The position numbers were made by a program, and so were the translations under genes. This document shows, piece by piece, positions 10,575 to 29,534 of a DNA stretch of 32,000 nucleotides (its first letter is position 1; each line of letters begins with the position of its first letter). Under the pieces are notes generated by a model. The model was not told the origin of the DNA, searched no databases, and was given only the letters and a program-made list of their open reading frames with translations. This DNA is from Zestosphaera tikiterensis. GTDB lineage: Archaea; Thermoproteota; Thermoprotei_A; Sulfolobales; NBVN01. Location of the stretch: NCBI GenBank assembly GCA_003056265.1, contig NBVN01000002.1, positions 390,001-422,000 of the forward strand, written 5' to 3'.

Positions 10575-11852
10575 GTGAAGGCAATCTACTTAGTTTTAGA
10601 CGGTGTGGCCGACCGTTTAGAAGATCAGCAAACCTCCCTTAAAATCGCTAGGAAGCCTTTCCTAGACTTAATATCTAGAGCCGGCATATGTGGGGTAGTT
10701 TACACGGTTGGTAAGGGTATTGCGCCGGAATCCGATGCTGCCGTTATGAGTATATTGGGTTACGACCCACATAAACACTACACTGGTAGAGGGCCTGTAG
10801 AAGCCGTCGGGGCTGGTTTAGAGTTTACTGAAGGTCGCGAAGTAGCTTTCAGAGCTAATTTCGCGACTGTCGATCCAAACACTATGAAGTTAGTGGATAG
10901 GAGGGTGGGTAGATCTCTCACGACGGAGGAGGCTTTAGAGCTTGCTAAAGCTTTAGATGGGTTAGAGCTTAAGAGGTATGGTGGCTATGTTCGGTTTAAA
11001 GCTACTGTAGCTCATAGGGCGGTGGTCGTTTTAGGCAGTAGGGAGTATGCGTTAAGCGATAACGTAGATAATACAGACCCAGCCTATAGGAAAGTAGGGA
11101 GTATATCAGTTGCTGAGAAGGTTTTCAACCCTTATGTAAAGCGTTCAGAACCCTTAGACAATTCGTTGGAGTCAAGAATTACTGCTGAGCTCGTTAATGA
11201 GTTTACAGTTGAAGCTGTGAAGGTGTTGGAGAATCATCCAATAAATAGGGAGAGGGAAGCTAGAGGATTGCTTAAAGCTAATGTCGTGTTAGTTAGAGAT
11301 GCCGGGTCTAGATTGCCTAAGTTAAAACCTATTAAGGAAGTTTACGGCCTAGAATTTGGTTCGGTAGCTGAAATGCCTGTTGAGAAAGGAATCGCTAAAA
11401 TACTTGGGATGCGTTCTATTGAGATACCACCACCTACTGAAGATAAAGAGAGTGATTATAGGATAAGGCTTGAAGCCACGTTAAAATTACTTAATGAGGT
11501 TGACGTAGTTTACGTTCATTTAAAAGGACCTGACGAGCCCGGTCATGACGGCGACTTAAGAGGCAAGGTTAAAGCGATAGAGGACATAGACAAGTTCTTC
11601 GTGCGTGAGTTACTTGCGTCCGTAGACTTAAGCAATATAGCTTTAATAGTTACAGCAGATCACGCCACACCACCCTCTGTTAAAGCTCATACAGATGATC
11701 CCGTACCTATAGTGTTGACAGGACTTAATGTCACTCCAGATAAGGTCGTGAAGCTAACTGAGGAGGAGTGCTATGCTAAGGGTAGCTTAGGCGTTATAGA
11801 GCATGGTTGGGAAGTACTGCATAGGATGTTAAGCTTGATTAAGGCGGTTTAA
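10575..11852 (+). CDS. apgM: Cofactor-independent phosphoglycerate mutase, archaeal type
   Basis: 425 aa with LVLDGVADR at the N-terminus and the metal-site segments HLKGPDEPGHDGD and TADHATP. GTG start with a GGTGA SD. Confidence 0.85.
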   Translation: MKAIYLVLDGVADRLEDQQTSLKIARKPFLDLISRAGICGVVYTVGKGIAPESDAAVMSILGYDPHKHYTGRGPVEAVGAGLEFTEGREVAFRANFATVDPNTMKLVDRRVGRSLTTEEALELAKALDGLELKRYGGYVRFKATVAHRAVVVLGSREYALSDNVDNTDPAYRKVGSISVAEKVFNPYVKRSEPLDNSLESRITAELVNEFTVEAVKVLENHPINREREARGLLKANVVLVRDAGSRLPKLKPIKEVYGLEFGSVAEMPVEKGIAKILGMRSIEIPPPTEDKESDYRIRLEATLKLLNEVDVVYVHLKGPDEPGHDGDLRGKVKAIEDIDKFFVRELLASVDLSNIALIVTADHATPPSVKAHTDDPVPIVLTGLNVTPDKVVKLTEEECYAKGSLGVIEHGWEVLHRMLSLIKAV

Positions 11853-14429: not shown

Positions 14430-14590
14430 GTTGGGTGCGGGCAACTGTAGCATAGAATGAGCTCCATGCCTTCTCGAAGCTGACAATAGGAGCTGAAGCA
14501 TGAAACTCCCTTAATAAGGGACTTCAGAGAAGCTATGGAAGCCCTAGGGAGAGAACCTCTCCATCATAAACGTCAGGGCTGTTAACGTCT
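14430..14590 (+). ncRNA. Unclassified structured RNA, copy A (AT-drifted paralogue of copy B, possibly decaying)
   Basis: It aligns to the reverse complement of 21409-21568; the first 51 positions align without gaps and differ at 10 sites. Most differences fall in predicted helices and are pair-compatible. G+C is about 50% by my count, and its TATA-equivalent is degraded (TTTTCATT). Confidence 0.5.
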
Positions 14591-14609
14591 TGAGGATTTA
14601 AATAGACCT

Positions 14610-15161
14610 TTAAATCTTAGGGTTGCTGTAATATTCGTTAGGGTTTAACCACGGTAGGAGGGCTGTAATAACCGCTAACTTCACTAAGTACTTTCTATCT
14701 ATTAAACCTTGGCTAAGTATGTGTATAATGCCTTCACGCTCTCCTATGTTTTTAACTCCACGTAACTTCTCAATAACTTCCTCAAGTTCCTTAACCTCGC
14801 CAGACATGATCATTTCCACGTAAGACTTAGGTAGGGGAAAGCCTGGAGAGAAACCTATAGATTCCTTTCCATCTCTCCCTATTATAAATGCTGCTTGAAT
14901 ATCTACATATGCGTTACCTACGTTGAATATGCCTGCCTCTATACCTACGTAGAAGTTGCAATCATGTATCTTCATAGCTTTTAAGGCTCTGGACTTAGCT
15001 CCGTTGACTATAGAGTCTAAACCGATTGGCTGAGGGTTTACTGCTTGATAATCTACTGAAAGCACTACGACGTCTTTCTTAAAAACCTCCTTGAAAGCTT
15101 CCTCAACTCCAGATAGTTTGGTGGGGTTTTTAGTACCTACGCATACCTTCATCTTCATCAC
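14610..15161 (-). CDS. Non-canonical purine NTPase (inosine/xanthosine triphosphatase, YjjX/DUF84 family)
   Basis: The N-terminus KVCVGTKNPTKLSGVEEAF matches the VGSxNPxKxxAV signature; about 180 aa. Confidence 0.7.
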   Translation of the reverse strand: MMKMKVCVGTKNPTKLSGVEEAFKEVFKKDVVVLSVDYQAVNPQPIGLDSIVNGAKSRALKAMKIHDCNFYVGIEAGIFNVGNAYVDIQAAFIIGRDGKESIGFSPGFPLPKSYVEMIMSGEVKELEEVIEKLRGVKNIGEREGIIHILSQGLIDRKYLVKLAVITALLPWLNPNEYYSNPKI

Positions 15162-15227: not shown

Positions 15228-15974
15228 GTGCTTAAAATAACGGCCTTAGGTGTTGGTGGGTGGGTTTCCCACCCTAGCTTCGGACAGTCCGGGTATGTCG
15301 TAAGTGATGGTAAAAGGAATGTCCTATTAGACTGTGGTGAAGGCACATACTACAAATTAAGCGCTTGCGGTATAAATATAAAAAACCTTGACTACATAAT
15401 CCTAACGCACATCCACGGAGATCACGTTCTAGGGCTGCCAACGTTAGCTCAAATAGCTGCTCATGAAAACCTAAGCTTAAAAGTTGTGACTTTAGAGGAG
15501 GTCTTTAAAAACATCGTTAAGTTATTTGAGGTTTTAGCCATAGAAAAATATTTAAACCATATCTCGTTTATGGAGCTTCCATTAAATGATGAGTTAGTTT
15601 TAGAGGATGATTTAATCGTTAAAAGCTTTAAGGCTTTACATCCAGTTCTAGCTACGTCTTTGTTAATTAGGATAGGTGAGTATCGAGTAGCTTACAGCGG
15701 TGATACAGCAGTTAATAAAGATTTTCTATTAGCTTCTGAAGGTGTTGACGTGTTACTACATGAGGTCTCCTTACCTGAGTTGTATGATAGTTTAAAGATA
15801 AGGATAGGTCATACTTCAGAGAAAGATTTAAAGGATATAGTAAACATAGCTAAACCTAAAACCTTCATACCGGTTCATTTCTACATGGAGCCTCCTAAGG
15901 TAAGACTGGATAACTACTTAAAGAATACTAAACTTGTTTACCTACTTCCATGTTCTAGCGTAGTTATAGAATGA
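15228..15974 (+). CDS. Metallo-beta-lactamase-fold hydrolase (RNase Z/BN-like)
   Basis: ILTHIHGDHVLGLP (HxHxDH) motif. I prefer GTG 15228, since the track start at 15219 lies in the GGTG SD. Confidence 0.65.
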   Translation: MLKITALGVGGWVSHPSFGQSGYVVSDGKRNVLLDCGEGTYYKLSACGINIKNLDYIILTHIHGDHVLGLPTLAQIAAHENLSLKVVTLEEVFKNIVKLFEVLAIEKYLNHISFMELPLNDELVLEDDLIVKSFKALHPVLATSLLIRIGEYRVAYSGDTAVNKDFLLASEGVDVLLHEVSLPELYDSLKIRIGHTSEKDLKDIVNIAKPKTFIPVHFYMEPPKVRLDNYLKNTKLVYLLPCSSVVIE

Positions 15975-16079: not shown

Positions 16080-17186
16080 TTGGTGCTAGATTTGCCTGAA
16101 GTGAGGAGGATACAGAAATTCGGTAAGTCAACTTTGATGGTTTCCCTACCCGCTAGTTGGGTTAAGGCCATGGGGTTGGTTTCAGGTGATAGCATAAGTA
16201 TTGAAGTTATGGAAGACGGCACCTTAAGGCTTGCCCCGCTACAGCTAGTTCAAAGAAAGGGAGAGAAGAGATTAAGAGTTAAGGTTAGTAGGGGGTCTTC
16301 AGAAGCTTTATTGACTAGAAGCATCATAGCTGGATACCTACTTGGAGTTGACGTAATAACAATAGACGCTATGGATGGCGTCTTAACGGAGACTCACTTG
16401 AAAAACATTAGAAACGTGGTTAAAGATTTGTTAGGTGCTGAAATCATAGAGAACACGCCGAGTAGGATATCCATTCAAGTCTTAGTGGATCCAAGCAAAT
16501 ACTCAGCAACGAACTTACTTAACAGAGTTATAAACTTAGTTAGGTTTATGCTTCAACATATTCAAACAGCTTTACTTGATAGAAAAATCTACTTACTTAG
16601 TGAAGTTCAGGAGATGGAGAAAGAGGTTGATAGACTTCATGCTTTAGCTGTGAGGCAATTCCTTCAGGCTCAAAACGATAGAAGCTTAGCCAAGCATTTA
16701 GGCATAAAAAGTTCTTTAATTCCTGAATACAGAGGTATAATTAAAGCTTTAGAGGAGGCTGCTGACGCACTCAGCAATCTAGCACAAATATTAAGCGATG
16801 AGAGGAATCAAGACATTATAGATGTGTTACGTTTGAATGTGGACATACTTAAAGAGTGTTTAGACTACATACTAATGGTTATTGACAGACTCGATAAGGT
16901 CTTTAAGACGTTGGATCCGTATATAACTAACGGCGTACTTAATATGATATCTGAATACTACATACTTATAAGGAAGTACGATGAAATGATGTTTAAATCT
17001 TTAAAAGCTATTGAAGCTACTACAGGGAAGGAAATGTCTGTAGATAAGAAATACCTCCACTTACGTGAATTTATAGATAAGCTGATTGAAGTAGGTAGGA
17101 TGATGGAATCCGCTGCTGAATCAGCGTTCGATATTTCAATAGATAAGACAGGGGAAATCTTAGACATAAGTAGGATTTTCCTGTGA
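16080..17186 (+). CDS. AbrB/SpoVT-domain plus PhoU-domain regulator
   Basis: The N-terminus RRIQKFGKSTLMVSLPASWVK is an AbrB swapped-hairpin pattern, followed by long helical PhoU-like repeats. The exact start is uncertain. Confidence 0.65.
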   Translation: MVLDLPEVRRIQKFGKSTLMVSLPASWVKAMGLVSGDSISIEVMEDGTLRLAPLQLVQRKGEKRLRVKVSRGSSEALLTRSIIAGYLLGVDVITIDAMDGVLTETHLKNIRNVVKDLLGAEIIENTPSRISIQVLVDPSKYSATNLLNRVINLVRFMLQHIQTALLDRKIYLLSEVQEMEKEVDRLHALAVRQFLQAQNDRSLAKHLGIKSSLIPEYRGIIKALEEAADALSNLAQILSDERNQDIIDVLRLNVDILKECLDYILMVIDRLDKVFKTLDPYITNGVLNMISEYYILIRKYDEMMFKSLKAIEATTGKEMSVDKKYLHLREFIDKLIEVGRMMESAAESAFDISIDKTGEILDISRIFL

Positions 17187-17279
17187 CTTAATACGTAGCA
17201 ACTCAAGTGAAGCAACACACCATTTTCAAACTAAAGTTATGTTTTAGGGCTGTGACCTATTTGATGTTCGGAGATAAAG

Positions 17280-17287
17280 TTTATAAC
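17280..17287 (+). promoter_or_regulatory. TATA box (TTTATAAC) for RNA locus C
   Basis: Preceded by AAAG, 16 nt upstream of GTTGGG. Confidence 0.4.
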
Positions 17288-17303
17288 GCTGGTGTTTAAG
17301 TAT

Positions 17304-17505
17304 GTTGGGAATCCGCTTAGGCGATGGGAGCAATGCTCCAAGCCTAGGTGGGGGTGAGCACAACATAGATGGGAGGGTCGTGCCGTTACCCTCGACAGCC
17401 ACCCATGAACCTACGGGATGAGCTAAGCGAGCCCTCTAGGTGGAGGCGGAACTCCCTAGATGAGATCATGAAAACACATAAAATGATTGAAATGAGCATC
17501 TAGGG
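17304..17505 (+). ncRNA. Unclassified structured RNA, locus C
   Basis: It has the same AAAGTTTATAA promoter, GTGTTTAA spacer and GTTGGG 5' end as copy B. Helices: GCUUAGGC/GCCUAGG enclosing GGAGC-AAU-GCUCC; GAGGGU..ACCCUC; UCUAG..GGAG-GCGGAA-CUCC-CUAGA; and a terminal 9-bp stem CCCUAGAUG/CAUCUAGGG. Confidence 0.45.
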
Positions 17506-17656
17506 AGAAACGGAATGCAATCTTTAACTTAAAGAAATAGCTTAAGACTTAATGATGGAGCAAAATAAGGATTAACTTCATCTCTGAATATACGGTTGCC
17601 TAGCGAAGCAGTTTTAAGTTTTATAGGTGTTGAATAGGTATTAATAGTGCTTCATT

Positions 17657-17664
17657 TAGTGGTG
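17657..17664 (+). promoter_or_regulatory. TATA box (TTTATAAG) for RNA locus D
   Basis: Preceded by GGTGGG, as in copy B, and 26 nt upstream of GGTTGGG. Confidence 0.45.
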
Positions 17665-17697
17665 GGTTTATAAGTTTTGCTAGCGCTATCGTAAAGT

Positions 17698-17907
17698 GAG
17701 GGTTGGGTTGACGATTCGATGAGGAGACGGAGGTAAGGATGAAACCCAACCTAATGAGGCCCTACCTTCGCTTGAGGGAGTCTAGCGGAGCGATGCGGAA
17801 GTCTAAGGCAATGAAGCTAAGCTCTCGAAAAACGGGGGTGGAGTAAAGATAGGGGCGATGAGTACCTATGTATGTAGATCAAAGCTTACATAGGTACGAA
17901 CCCTTTT
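17698..17907 (+). ncRNA. Unclassified structured RNA, locus D (shares a module with 29372-29470)
   Basis: A GGTGGGTTTATAAG promoter lies 26 nt upstream of GGTTGGG. It has a 9-bp stem GGUUGGGUU/AACCCAACC, the hairpin CUCUCG-AAAAA-CGGGGG and a perfect 10-bp stem UACCUAUGUA/UACAUAGGUA flanked by GAUGAG and CGAA. It ends in CCCTTTT (oligo-T). Confidence 0.5.
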
Positions 17908-20105: not shown

Positions 20106-20230
20106 CTCACTACCCTCTCTAAATGTAATGTAGAGCCAGCGAAGGTTATAATTTTTATGGGTTTAACGAGCTTGCAACTTAAAGCCTCGCTTTTTAAGGT
20201 GGGGAGAGGGTCATCTTAATCGGATAGCAT

Positions 20231-21289
20231 CTATTCTATAACGCCTGTTCTCCTAGCTAATGCTTCAGCGGCTTCATACGTTAATCCGGTGTCGCCAAGT
20301 ATAGTGTACCTTTCAGGTCTTATCTTATGAGCCATCGTAAGGGCTTCAATTATGTCTACATCTTTAACGCCTAACTCCTTAGCTGTTGTTGGCAAACCAA
20401 TACGTTTTAAAGTGTCTTTAATTTTCCTCCAATTCCTCCCGTGGAGGTAAGACATCATTATAGTCCCTACCGCCACTTGCTCTCCATGCAATGCTGGGTG
20501 GTTTGCTACTATGTCTAGAGCGTGGCTAAATAGATGTTCTGAACCACTTCCCGGCCTCGAAGACCCCGCTATACACATAGCTACGGAAGAGCTTACTAAA
20601 CCCTCGATGATTATGCTCGCTGACTCTACACCACCGGCGGATATCACATCAGCTGACGTGATGACATGCTTTGCTGAAAGCAGGGCAAGTTGAGCTGAGT
20701 AATCGCCGTAATACTCTCCCTTAAGTCTGTGAGCAAGTCTCCAATCAAGCACGGCAGTTAACTTACCTAGTAAGTCACCTGCCCCAGATATTAAAAGTCT
20801 TTTAGGGGCGTTGGAAATCACGTCTAAATCCGCGATTACAGCTACGGGCGGTTTAGCCATAACGGAAGTAACTTTCTCTAAACCTCTTATGGAGGCAAAA
20901 GGTGATGCTATCCCATCATGTGAGGCTGTGGTTGGGACGCTTATGAACGGTATTCCAAGCTCCGCTGAAACATACTTGGCAGCGTCTATAGACTTACCAC
21001 CGCCTAAGCCTATGATGACGTCAGGTGTTCTAACCCTAACCTCATCCCAAACCTCCCTAACATCGCCTACGTTTGAAGACTTAACCAAGCTAACTTCATA
21101 TTCGAAGTCAGATTCATTCAAAACTTCATCTATGACTTTATTGAGTATTTTAAATACGTTAGGACCTGTTACCACGTGTATTTTACGCCCTAGCTTAAGA
21201 TCCTTAATAACTAACGGGATCCTCTTAAGAACTCCACGCCCTACAATCACCTTCTTAGGCAGCTCTATTACGTGCGGGTCCTTCCTCAA
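20231..21289 (-). CDS. egsA: sn-Glycerol-1-phosphate dehydrogenase
   Basis: GLGGGKSIDAAKY and TTASHDGIASPFASI motifs, 352 aa, apparent TTG start. Confidence 0.85.
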   Translation of the reverse strand: MRKDPHVIELPKKVIVGRGVLKRIPLVIKDLKLGRKIHVVTGPNVFKILNKVIDEVLNESDFEYEVSLVKSSNVGDVREVWDEVRVRTPDVIIGLGGGKSIDAAKYVSAELGIPFISVPTTASHDGIASPFASIRGLEKVTSVMAKPPVAVIADLDVISNAPKRLLISGAGDLLGKLTAVLDWRLAHRLKGEYYGDYSAQLALLSAKHVITSADVISAGGVESASIIIEGLVSSSVAMCIAGSSRPGSGSEHLFSHALDIVANHPALHGEQVAVGTIMMSYLHGRNWRKIKDTLKRIGLPTTAKELGVKDVDIIEALTMAHKIRPERYTILGDTGLTYEAAEALARRTGVIE

Positions 21290-21408
21290 CTTAATTACCT
21301 AAACAGTAATTCTCTCTCAAGCTTTTATGCCTGAAACCCATCGTTAACTGCAGGATAACCTATATAACCTATAAGAAACCTTATTAACGGTGTTAAGGAA
21401 GGAGTTTA

Positions 21409-21568
21409 GAGCTGACGGCCCCTGTTGTTTATGGCAGGGGTTCTCCCCCTAGGGCTACCATCACCTCTCTGAAGCCCCTCACCGGGAGTGCATCATCTAT
21501 CAGCTCCCGCCGCCAGCTTCGGGAAGGTGTGGGTCTCATCCCAAGCTACGGTTGCCCACACCCAACCA
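21409..21568 (-). ncRNA. Unclassified structured RNA, copy B
   Basis: Non-coding island with 98/159 G+C by my count, between AT-rich flanks. A TTTATAAG box lies 20 nt upstream of the GGTTGGG 5' end. It contains an 8-bp helix GGUGUGGG/CCCACACC, hairpins GGGAG..CUCCC and GGGG-AGAA-CCCC, and the closing stem GCCCU/GGGGC. It is paralogous to 14430-14590. Confidence 0.6.
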
Positions 21569-21587
21569 TGACTTAATTAAACACAAA

Positions 21588-21595
21588 CTTATAAA
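21588..21595 (-). promoter_or_regulatory. TATA box (TTTATAAG on the minus strand) for RNA copy B
   Basis: An A-rich BRE-like AAAAG precedes it, and it lies 20 nt from the GGTTGGG 5' end. The same octamer precedes locus D. Confidence 0.45.
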
Positions 21596-21640
21596 CTTTT
21601 ATCCCACCTTTAAAAACGAGGCTTTCAGTTTAGAGGTGAT

Positions 21641-22237
21641 ATGTTGATGAACGTTATTCACGGAACAACAACCGTTGGTATGAAGGTAAAGGACGGTGTA
21701 GTAATGGCGGCAGATAAAAGAGCGAGTCAAGGTTACTACATAGCACATAAGAAAGTCAAGAAAATCGTTAAAATAGACGATCACGTAGTTATGTCTATAG
21801 CTGGGTTAGTTGCTGACGCGCAGATCCTAGCATCTCAACTGCAGTACCTAGCTAGGCAACATAAGTATGAATTTGGAAAACCTATATCCGTTAAGTCACT
21901 TGCTTCATATTTGGGTTTACTCCTCAACGCCTATAAATACTTCCCGTTTGAAGTGCAGCTGTTGATAGGTGGTTATGACGACCTGCCAAGACTATATGCC
22001 GTTCAATGGTTTGGAGAATATTTCGAGGAGGACTACTCCGTAACGGGGTCCGGAAGCCCTATAGCTGTTGGGTTAATCGAAAGCAGGTATAGTAGAGACT
22101 TACCCCTTGATGAAGCTGTTAAACTAGCTGTAGAGGCGATAAGAGCTTCAGTTAAGAGGGACGTTTTCAGCGGTGAAGGGGTGGACGTAGCCGTCGTTAC
22201 GAAGCAGTCTGTGAACTTCTTAAGTTTTTCTTTATGA
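21641..22237 (+). CDS. psmB: Proteasome beta subunit
   Basis: A short propeptide followed by GTTTVG (catalytic Thr), then DKRAS. Confidence 0.9.
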   Translation: MLMNVIHGTTTVGMKVKDGVVMAADKRASQGYYIAHKKVKKIVKIDDHVVMSIAGLVADAQILASQLQYLARQHKYEFGKPISVKSLASYLGLLLNAYKYFPFEVQLLIGGYDDLPRLYAVQWFGEYFEEDYSVTGSGSPIAVGLIESRYSRDLPLDEAVKLAVEAIRASVKRDVFSGEGVDVAVVTKQSVNFLSFSL

Positions 22238-29196: not shown

Positions 29197-29217
29197 GTGA
29201 CCTTACCTTACAACTGA

Positions 29218-29500
29218 AAGCCTCCCTTCCACACGAATTCTCGAGTCCTTCAGGGATAGGGGTAATGGGTTGGAGGCCCGGCCCGGAGGTGAATGGGGAG
29301 AGATGTACCTCCAAACCAATAAATTGCCTGAGGAAGAACCCCATCCTTCAGGATGAACCGCCTTTTGCCGTAGGGAGTTCGGTGAAGTCCTAGGCAACTA
29401 AGGTGTATGAGCTCCCGCAGACGGGGGATGGAAAGCCGTGATGAGCTCGGCTGTACCGAATCCGAAACATGAAGGCACGGCTCGAGCAAACGGTTATGGC
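29218..29500 (+). ncRNA. Unclassified structured RNA, locus E, between spt4 and rps24e
   Basis: A 400-nt non-coding gap inside a normally compact operon. A TTTATATA box at 29189-29196 predicts a start near 29219. Helices: GGUUGGAGG/CCUCCAAACC, CCUGAGG/CCUUCAGG, CUCCCG-CAGA-CGGGGG and GCCGUG/CACGGC. The three overlapping ORFs on both strands look like G+C artefacts. Confidence 0.5.
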
Positions 29501-29534
29501 ATAGCTAAACATTATTTAAGGCTACCAGTAAATT

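Follow-up and report, generated by a model that had tools for sequence, protein, structure and literature searches.

The 32-kb window of Zestosphaera tikiterensis analysed here (the whole stretch of contig DNA shown above; all coordinates are positions in it) carries, in the spacer between psmB and egsA, a G+C-rich island, called B below, whose RNA lies on the minus strand. The preliminary description of this DNA had taken the island for a stand-alone RNA gene. The comparative data show that it is rather a 217-bp insertion, which two conspecific contigs lack, as do the sister species and the genus relatives that were examined; B is an insertion polymorphism, found in this strain and not in its closest relatives. 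What stood of the earlier account is that the unit is discrete and bears a promoter. The RNA of B is probably a transposon's RNA and not a housekeeping RNA. The features of the locus, at which the encoded EgsA is identical to PUA33466.1 of Z. tikiterensis, are as follows:

20231-21289, minus strand: egsA.
21641-22237, plus strand: psmB.
21412-21628, minus strand: inserted element B, 217 bp (215-224 bp by repeat assignment), composed of the left end, the promoter region and the RNA gene.
21629-21635, minus strand: left target copy, CTCTAAA on the minus strand, with TCAC before it on the RNA-sense strand.
21405-21411, minus strand: right target copy, native sequence that runs into the egsA promoter region.

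The relatives' set consisted of 80 egsA loci of GTDB genomes together with Logan, JGI and ENA contigs. In relatives at 55-70% EgsA identity, psmB and egsA are divergent, the spacer between them measures about 95-135 nt, and the island is absent from the loci examined. Two conspecific contigs (L081, Logan SRR16893496, and L093, JGI 3300020567), with flanks about 99% identical to those of the window, have a 133-nt spacer without B, and the sister species is likewise without island B at psmB-egsA. When the window was aligned with the conspecific contigs, the empty site read ...CAACATGCCACCTCTAAACTCCTTCC..., with the single-copy target CATGCCACCTCTAAACTCC, and the filled site read ...CAACATATCACCTCTAAACT[GAAAGCC...GGGGCCGTCAG]CTCTAAACTCCTTCC... 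(the outer brackets enclose the inserted DNA). In the relatives examined the native sequence CACCT(C)TAAACTCC is unbroken, and therefore the empty site is the ancestral state. The insertion can be described as 217 bp with a 7-bp duplication or, equivalently, as 215 bp with a 9-bp duplication, since the left target copy extends to 9 bp (21627-21635) and matches at 12 of 13 positions over 13 bp (21627-21639). The resulting direct repeat, AGTTTAGAG[C/G]TGA, has a spacing of 224 and is exact over the 9 bp of AGTTTAGAG (plus strand).

An independent read assembly (L173, SRR17771679) was 100% identical over 21440-17802 and reproduced the same right junction, so that the insertion is not an assembly artefact; in addition, repeats of 9-13 bp are too short for de Bruijn mis-joins. 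The comparative data also refute a cis-acting egsA leader or riboswitch, which the position of B, on the egsA strand and 120 nt upstream, could have suggested: B does not precede egsA in the conspecific strains, in the sister species or in the other relatives that were examined, and its paralogue (copy A, see below) lies in an unrelated spacer, antisense to both neighbours. We give virtually no credence to either the leader or the artefact. The preliminary description had likewise held that B is not an egsA leader and that egsA has its own promoter, and the 120 nt from B to egsA turned out to be the complete native egsA/psmB promoter spacer of the strains without B. A separate observation is that the independently made short-read assemblies L081, L084, L085 and L173 break at or inside B or the islands C and D described below (window equivalents 17249-17286, 17802, 17902 and 21440); such breaks would be expected of multi-copy or polymorphic sequence.

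The gap between egsA and psmB (21290-21640, 351 nt) contains the G+C island that had been reported there: the 160-mer 21409-21568 (minus strand) has 61.3% G+C against 40.55% for the whole window, and B is one of the three regions of the window in which the G+C profile shows a 120-nt stretch of at least 56% G+C. The parts of the RNA gene are:

21588-21600, minus strand: BRE/TATA-like (TFB-recognition element and TATA box) promoter for the B RNA, AAAAGTTTATAAG, 20 nt upstream of GGTTGGG (21561-21567).
21412-21567, minus strand: RNA core, GGUUGGG...GGGGCCGUCAG, about 156 nt, 61% G+C, the sole part in common with copy A.
21526-21562, minus strand: hairpin 1, with the 8-bp stem GGUGUGGG/CCCACACC, the internal loop CAA/GAUGAGA and the inner stem CCG/UGG.
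21471-21520, minus strand: hairpin 2, with the lower stem GAAGCU/GGCUUC, an internal loop and the upper stem CGGGAG/CUCCCG (21483-21509).
21413-21463, minus strand: hairpin 3, adjoining the element end, with the closing stem UGAUGG/CCGUCA and GCCCU/AGGGG.

The promoter was thus found where the preliminary description had placed it, 20 nt before GGTTGGG. The unit 21409-21568 proposed there needs one correction: the conserved unit stops at 21412 (...GGGGCCGTCAG) and not at 21409. The combination TTTATAA-N12-32-GTTGGG, which is common to islands B, C and D, occurs three times in the window against 0.08 expected, and the promoter block of B is present also in island C.

B is predicted to fold into three domains (hairpins 1-3) that recur in the minimum free energy (MFE) folds at 37, 60 and 80 C. 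The 8-bp helix that had been drawn by eye was found at 21555-21562 / 21526-21533, and the remaining helices named with it all appear in the MFE folds at the three temperatures; for the region of hairpin 1 a GNRA-hairpin fold may be an alternative. The apical loop of hairpin 2, CUGA-UAGA-UGAUGCA, resembles a kink-loop (K-loop), and hairpin 3 also holds a small hairpin, GGGG-GAGAA-CCCC (21437-21449), and the single-stranded UGCCAUAAACAAC. The MFE of B was -70.5 kcal/mol, compared with -60.3 +/- 4.3 for 200 dinucleotide shuffles (z = -2.36), and 2 of the 200 shuffles were as good; the fold is better than chance, yet far from overwhelming. Between hairpins 2 and 3 the RNA carries AGAGGUGAU (21460-21468, minus strand), which is identical to the psmB Shine-Dalgarno leader 170 nt away (21632-21640, plus strand) and nearly complementary to the 3' end of 16S rRNA. 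This sequence is not kept in copy A, and a micro-ORF (open reading frame) of 10-16 aa begins at an overlapping AUG.

No known family could be assigned to the RNA, in agreement with the preliminary description. In the Rfam 15 scan that it had called for, no family was detected at the gathering thresholds in the whole window, and ARAGORN detected no tRNA; the window and the relatives' loci contain no rRNA either. In a permissive scan of B the sole matches were to sR58 (18.6 bits; gathering 55) and PyrR207 (13.8 bits; gathering 60), and neither the 451-nt nor the 173-nt scan of B gave a match to HgcC or sot0042 at E <= 10. Several candidates were tried and rejected. A tRNA, a split tRNA or a short interspersed nuclear element (SINE) had neither an ARAGORN match nor a sub-threshold tRNA match. 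For a C/D box small RNA (sRNA), the sR58 alignment has GAAGCUG instead of the box C RUGAUGA and GUGA instead of the box D CUGA, which in such RNAs come with guides of 10-12 nt. A bridge RNA of the IS110 type and SINE-like retroposition were dismissed, since the neighbourhood has neither a recombinase nor a reverse transcriptase and the inserted DNA includes the promoter. A coding role was discarded as well: the ORFs are of 36 aa at most and are not kept between copies A and B, and the micro-ORF of 10-16 aa (M[V/E]ALG.EP...) is frame-shifted in L085, its AUG overlapping a Shine-Dalgarno-like motif.

The label "copy B" of the earlier account implied a second copy, and an nhmmer search with B located it 7 kb away (E = 3.9e-21):

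14430-14586, plus strand: copy A, 48.7% G+C, apparently an older, decayed paralogue of B.

Copy A is located in the spacer between an NTPase gene and the L38e gene, antisense to both. Only the core of about 156 nt is clearly alignable between A and B, with 78.8% identity over 151 aligned positions, and their conservation stops at ...GYYGUYAR|, which is the insertion boundary. In 23 of the 32 differences B has G/C and A has A/T, 5 are AT->GC changes, and the fold of copy A is no better than that of shuffled sequences (z = -1.3); judged from its sequence, copy A seems to be a decaying copy. All conspecific contigs of this locus (L084-L088) carry it, two of them (L085 and L088) in variant form, but the sister-species contigs L089 and L090 lack it, and their spacer is 127 nt vs 292 nt in the window. 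A decayed fixed copy together with an intact polymorphic copy is what would be expected of a selfish element rather than of a host gene. Strains of 98.6% overall identity show about 6 differing positions or indels in the 155 nt of copy A. The variants in L085 (2657-2825) and L088 (1179-1300) are more B-like, with GGGGGAGAAC in both and CAGGGGC and UCAAC in L085, so that either the copy A of the window decayed faster or the copies exchange sequence. Beside copy A, the C-terminus and stop of the NTPase (PF01931) differ, with 180-183 aa (...NPKI*) here and 188 aa in the sister species; the divergence (14598-14612; L089 10540-10567) begins where the homology to the sister spacer ends, and the insertion may have replaced the last NTPase codons.

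Further members were sought with an A+B profile. In the relatives' loci (1.44 Mb) nhmmer detected only copy A in conspecific contigs; the exact 3' and 5' conserved blocks had 0 matches in metagenome contigs; four patterns gave chance matches only in viral contigs; and blastn found none in phage and plasmid records. The fold was examined for structure-preserving substitutions, a check that the preliminary description had set, and the signal was weak. When the 80 C fold of B was placed on copy A, 30 of the 45 pairs were unchanged, 5 had one-side changes that still pair, 2 had changed on both sides and 7 were broken, that is, half of the changed pairs (7/14). In the four sequences taken together (B, A and the L085 and L088 variants) pairing is kept in 88% of the cells, with changes on both sides at 3 pairs, but 21 of 500 shuffles did as well. 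Of the small features, conservation is highest in the CUGA-N4-UGA loop of hairpin 2, the inner stem of hairpin 1 and the small GGGG/CCCC hairpin. One pair of the inner stem of hairpin 1 reads C-G / U-A / U-G across the copies. In the small GGGG/CCCC hairpin one pair reads by eye G-C / A-U / G-U; the computed count for the nearest pair was GU:3 GC:1. The comparison of A and B gives weak support to a shared fold.

The loop of hairpin 2 bears on a different reading, in which B would be the gene of a cellular guide-type sRNA bound by L7Ae (H/ACA-like, with a K-loop hairpin), relocated by illegitimate recombination and serving RNA modification or ribonucleoprotein scaffolding. The CUGA-N4-UGA loop is kept in A and B on a stem of 5-6 bp (CUGA and (A)UGA are conserved, and the 4 nt between them differ in A), the flanking internal-loop strands differ between the copies, a GAUGAG motif lies beside the helices, and weak matches to sR58 and PyrR207 were obtained. 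The 5-6-bp upper stem, the GA-rich CUGA...UGA loop and the unpaired strands that differ between copies are also features of archaeal H/ACA RNAs (PMC11077068; PyrR207). In such RNAs a K-turn or K-loop is located 5-6 bp above a pseudouridylation pocket, and in hairpin 2 the tandem G.A pairs would sit 7-8 bp above the loop. However, all Rfam scores are far under gathering (about 14 bits against 60 for the H/ACA family), and there is no ACA or ANA box in the right context, the only candidate being an AGA inside a possible CUUC/GARG helix extension, at a distance from the upper stem of 13 nt in B and 15 nt in A; in H/ACA RNAs the box comes 14-16 nt 3' of the pocket, after a stable lower stem. In B and A that stem is short or weak (5-6 bp and 4 bp, respectively). 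Nearly all of the differences in the would-be guide are GC->AT transitions, which look like decay and not like retargeting; the H/ACA RNAs of crenarchaea consist of one hairpin and measure 60-80 nt (PMC11077068), a third of the length of the B RNA; and the gene is strain-specific and dispensable in conspecific strains. We consider this reading improbable. The earlier statement that neither a C/D nor an H/ACA signature fits was essentially right; the K-loop-like CUGA-N4-UGA is kept in both copies.

The ends of the element are:

21620-21628, minus strand: left inverted end, CTGAAAGCC.
21412-21420, minus strand: right inverted end, GGCCGTCAG in the RNA sense, with a 7/9 match to the left end.
21602-21628, plus strand: apparently decayed "tetraloop hairpin + TCAG" end that faces psmB, TCCCACCTTTAAAAACGAGGCTTTCAG.

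The inverted ends CTGAAAGCC / CTGACGGCC sit exactly at the insertion boundaries, and the TCAG at the right end forms at the same time the last bases of the RNA core. Of only 4 CTGANNGCC sites in the 32 kb, two form the ends of B, in inverted orientation; in an extended alignment the inverted-repeat match beyond 9 bp was not significant. The left terminus of B recurs in two other places: the 13-mer AACTGAAAGCCTC of the left terminus also opens island E of the window (29214, plus strand), and ACTGAAAGCCTCG of the same terminus is also the terminus of an element in a Desulfurococcaceae metagenome-assembled genome (locus L020, CAYTXX010000016.1, 63% EgsA identity). The L020 element (11470-11813, 344 bp), situated between the genes for S6e and Pelota, terminates on both sides in inverted 13-mers that match perfectly: CTGAAAGCCTCGC occupies 11470-11482 and its complement 11801-11813. 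Its RNA scored 35.7 bits with HgcC (E = 1.8e-6; sub-threshold, gathering 50) and 34 bits with sot0042 (E = 4.7e-7), includes the hairpin CCCCCGCCC-UUAA-GGGUGGGG followed by AGGAGGUCAG, and has a second copy 4 kb off (15477-15642, E = 2e-10). These data suggest that HgcC-type RNAs ride inverted-repeat-bounded elements in Desulfurococcaceae. Island E is homologous to the L020 RNA (nhmmer E = 4e-6; 35/42 in a local alignment).

When compared by eye, TCCCACCTTTAAAAACGAGGCTTTCAG of B and the right end of L020, CCCCGCCCTTAAGGGCGAGGCTTTCAG, were identical at 21 of 27 positions, and all 6 mismatches were GC->AT transitions; hence, the left end of B appears to be a decayed "tetraloop hairpin + TCAG" module. 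The layout of the L020 end is CCCCGCCC-TTAA-GGGCGAGG-CTT-TCAG; at the left end of B the hairpin has decayed so far that it can no longer fold, and the right end has a like layout, with the stem GCCCU...AGGGG, then CCG and then UCAG. A sub-terminal hairpin with a cleavage motif at the element end, as in IS200/IS605-type elements, is thus found at B, as are the terminal inverted repeats (7/9) of a classical miniature inverted-repeat transposable element (MITE). TCAC stands to the left of B and TCAG at its right end; at copy A the left motif is likewise TCAC and the right one TTAA, or TCAA in L085, and TCACCTC is located 73 nt upstream of GTTGGG in both B and copy A. The resulting TCAC|...TCAG| pattern, which resembles a transposon-adjacent and a transposon-encoded motif (TAM/TEM), rests on two copies, and E (TTAC) and L020 (GAGA) deviate from it. 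Separately, ACTTAAAGCCTC at 20177-20188 (plus strand), in the egsA-UPF0179 spacer, is one mismatch away from the element terminus; this spacer is of 125 nt here and 62 nt in the sister species, and ACTTAAAGCCTC may be a relic of another element end.

The insertion sets psmB 224 bp apart from its native promoter. The decayed end hairpin puts TTTAAAAA 24 nt upstream of the psmB ATG, the spot expected of a replacement TATA box, and TTTAAAAA may have taken on this role; the promoter of the B RNA is directed towards egsA.

On the basis of these analogies, our tentative interpretation, to which we accord somewhat less than an even chance, is that B is a non-autonomous element similar to MITEs or to palindrome-associated transposable elements (PATEs), with a promoter-driven, omegaRNA-like RNA that would read out into the flank. 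The element entered the psmB-egsA spacer beside TCAC, landing 14 bp upstream of the psmB start codon, and it has the degenerate, outward-facing tetraloop hairpin + TCAG at its end. A strong archaeal BRE/TATA promoter would drive the G+C-rich RNA of about 156 nt with its three hairpins, and as the last conserved base of this RNA (...GGGGCCGUCAG) is the last base of the element, transcripts would run into the flank (CUCUAAACUCCUUCC...). No run of three or more T precedes GGTTTCTT, about 33 nt past the element end. The guide-like part would then be:

21392-21411, minus strand: flanking 20 nt, CUCUAAACUCCUUCCUUAAC, the putative guide-like 3' tail of the read-through transcript, by analogy with omegaRNAs and the sense overlapping transcripts (sotRNAs) of insertion sequences (PMC10055086, PMC4615843).

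The RNA would be an orphan omegaRNA-like scaffold with the adjacent flank of about 16-20 nt as guide, and a transposon-encoded RNA-guided nuclease would use it in trans to keep or spread the element. Since the ends tie B to HgcC-like and PATE-type elements, which are related to the IS200/IS605-IS1341 right ends from which sotRNAs and omegaRNAs arise, its most likely function would be that of the element's own non-coding RNA.

Such an interpretation has precedents. A right-end-like tetraloop is common to HgcC, to an intergenic RNA of PATE origin and to the sotRNAs with which IS1341-type tnpB genes end on their 3' side, and sotRNAs have their own promoter (Gomes-Filho et al., PMC4615843); the RNAs of tnpB 3' ends correspond to the omegaRNAs of later work. 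PATEs often encode omegaRNAs, which are of necessity used in trans by TnpB, and IS200/IS605 elements have paired TAM and TEM sequences (Meers et al., PMC10055086). Like the PATE/omegaRNA systems represented by HgcC (RF00062) and sot0042 (RF02656), B is a short protein-less mobile unit with a G+C-rich structured RNA in an A+T-rich hyperthermophile; it has the hairpin + TCAG end, a TCAC/TCAG pair that resembles TAM/TEM and its own promoter motif, and the conservation of its RNA ends at ...GUCAG|, as that of the HgcC consensus ends at ...GGAGGUCAG, followed by variable sequence. It differs from them in an RNA body without detectable similarity to HgcC or sot0042, in ends that are mutually inverted, in its target duplication of 7-9 bp, and in that no tnpB/tnpA partner was seen for it in the window and the annotated contigs. 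Species-specific, multi-copy and transcribed MITE-like sRNA elements have been described in Pyrobaculum calidifontis (Lui et al. 2018, PMC6009581, section 22), and these share with B an inverted-repeat-flanked, sRNA-like core and a location in intergenic DNA that is unstable and does not align with that of relatives. In those elements, however, the core is of the C/D type, with C and D boxes and about 60 nt, and the inverted repeats are long and conserved (PMC6009581), whereas B has a 156-nt three-hairpin core without C/D boxes and 9-bp ends (7/9).

Several results weigh against the omegaRNA-like interpretation. A target of 7-9 bp is duplicated at B, whereas the peel-and-paste insertion of IS200/IS605 elements duplicates none. 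No target duplication was found for the L020 element, so the mechanism does not look uniform. The likeness to HgcC-type elements is confined to the ends, the RNA body of B having no HgcC or sot0042 match even in the permissive 173-nt scan. The covariation, from four sequences, is weak; the family amounts to two copies in all searches; and neither tnpB or tnpA nor any further transposase gene turned up in the window, in about 3 kb of this genome beyond it, or among the Pfam-annotated genes of the conspecific and sister-species contigs.

The inverted ends (7/9) and the exact duplication of 7-9 bp could instead be the marks of a DDE-type MITE that is moved by a transposase encoded elsewhere, with promoter-like boxes and fold as by-products or outward promoters and no function of the RNA. 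The size is typical for archaeal MITEs, the presence/absence polymorphism and the decay of the old copy are consistent with it, no significant covariation was found, and there is the crenarchaeal MITE-like precedent (PMC6009581). On the other hand, the L020 relative has perfect 13-bp inverted ends and yet no duplication, and none is recognisable at copy A or E. An insertion sequence with the termini of B, from which a MITE could derive, occurs neither in the window nor in the loci of the relatives. Moreover, hairpin + TCAG ends are typical of IS200/IS605-type right ends, the 61% G+C core has a near-consensus and properly spaced BRE/TATA, as in two other structured islands, and it is the RNA core and not the ends that is well conserved between A and B. 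The Sulfolobus MITEs SM1-SM4, an account of which is attributed to Redder, She and Garrett in 2001, are reportedly non-autonomous, 80-350 bp long, and have inverted ends as well as duplicated targets; unlike B, they are said to be A+T-rich internal-deletion derivatives of known DDE insertion sequences without a promoter-RNA cargo. We regard the DDE-type MITE as a possible but unlikely explanation.

A mini-circle integrated Campbell-style by a tyrosine recombinase would account jointly for three features: the ends are inverted, the repeat is exact over 7 bp, and the innermost bases of the arms are conserved in the target (CAC|CTCTAAA|CTC). The abutted ends, GGCCGTCAG-[CTCTAAA]-CTGAAAGCC, would form two inverted 9-bp arms round a 7-bp overlap identical to the chromosomal CTCTAAA, which would be left on both sides, and an XerA-like integrase gene is located 2.5 kb away, adjoining island D. 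This proposal bears on the mobility alone and could go together with any function of the RNA. At copy A, at E and at the L020 element, though, the flanking repeats do not match, and the integrase is syntenic in strains without B, C or D and in the sister species, so that it looks like a housekeeping XerA. We know of no recombinase that moves 0.2-kb circles in archaea, and we think it quite improbable that B arose in this way. At the junction of B itself, the DDE-type MITE and the mini-circle fit equally as well as the omegaRNA-like element.

A further step from the omegaRNA-like interpretation is that B and its paralogue would represent a new family of archaeal "guide-RNA-only" mobile elements. 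Its members would have a promoter and a scaffold of about 156 nt reading into the flank, IS200/IS605-derived ends arranged as inverted repeats, and a TCAC-adjacent integration with a 7-9 bp duplication; at psmB, the TATA would have been replaced by the decayed end hairpin. This combination of ends and duplication is produced by no described transposition pathway, and we hold the proposal of such a family to be doubtful.

The window has three further G+C-rich, well-folding islands without counterpart in the sister species, two of which, C and D, are missing from the conspecific contig L093 as well:

17250-17512, plus strand: island C, a putative RNA of about 210 nt whose promoter, GGAGATAAAGTTTATAACGCTGGTGTTTAAGTAT|GTTGGG, is nearly that of B.
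17602-17905, plus strand: island D, an inserted block directly upstream of the XerA-like integrase gene, with the TATA GGGTTTATAAG.
29214-29503, plus strand: island E, an HgcC-like element in the Spt4-S24e spacer, which starts with CTGAAAGCCTCCC, the terminus of B.

Island C folds with z = -3.76 and ends in an 11-bp hairpin, CTCCCTAGATG/CATCTAGGGAG; its junction microhomology is of 2-3 nt only, the PhoU-integrase spacer of the sister species measures just 70 nt, and no Rfam match was found. At its insertion start (17180-17262) the PhoU stop region CCTGTGACTTAATACG recurs 70 nt downstream as GGGCTGTGACCTATTTGATG; in the sister species CTATGACCTATTCC stands directly at the PhoU stop, and this local duplication in the window is without explanation. 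The RNA of island D begins with GGGUUGGGUU, has several GAUGA(G/A) motifs, ends in an 11-bp hairpin followed by CCCUUUU, and folds with z = -3.59; it gave no Rfam match and no homologue in the relatives' loci. In island E the part homologous to the L020 HgcC-like RNA is 29240-29354, the hairpin CAUCC-UUCA-GGAUG is at 29342-29355, and Rfam itself gave no HgcC match; in the sister species about 130 nt of unrelated sequence replaces the 369-nt window segment 29138-29506. No convincing target duplication was detected for copy A, C, D, E or the L020 element.

These results recast a supposed orphan structured RNA gene as a recently mobile element that is polymorphic for presence or absence within one species, and a polymorphism of this kind gives direct access to transposition in archaea. 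Screens in which a G+C island in an A+T-rich hyperthermophile is taken for an RNA gene pick up transposon-derived RNAs; HgcC, which was found by such a screen, has been linked to the right ends of IS200/IS605 elements through the common tetraloop motif (PMC4615843). If the RNA of B is indeed an omegaRNA-like guide, it would provide a compact scaffold of hot-spring archaeal origin that comes with a promoter, it would imply a partner nuclease in the same genome, and it would be of interest for the mining of TnpB-type genome editors; if its binding partner is a nuclease, TnpB-like or other, it would represent a new omegaRNA class from a hyperthermophilic crenarchaeon. As at least five such islands are found in 32 kb, all of them absent from the sister species, small RNA-bearing elements may be a major source both of turnover in intergenic DNA and of new promoters beside essential genes such as psmB.

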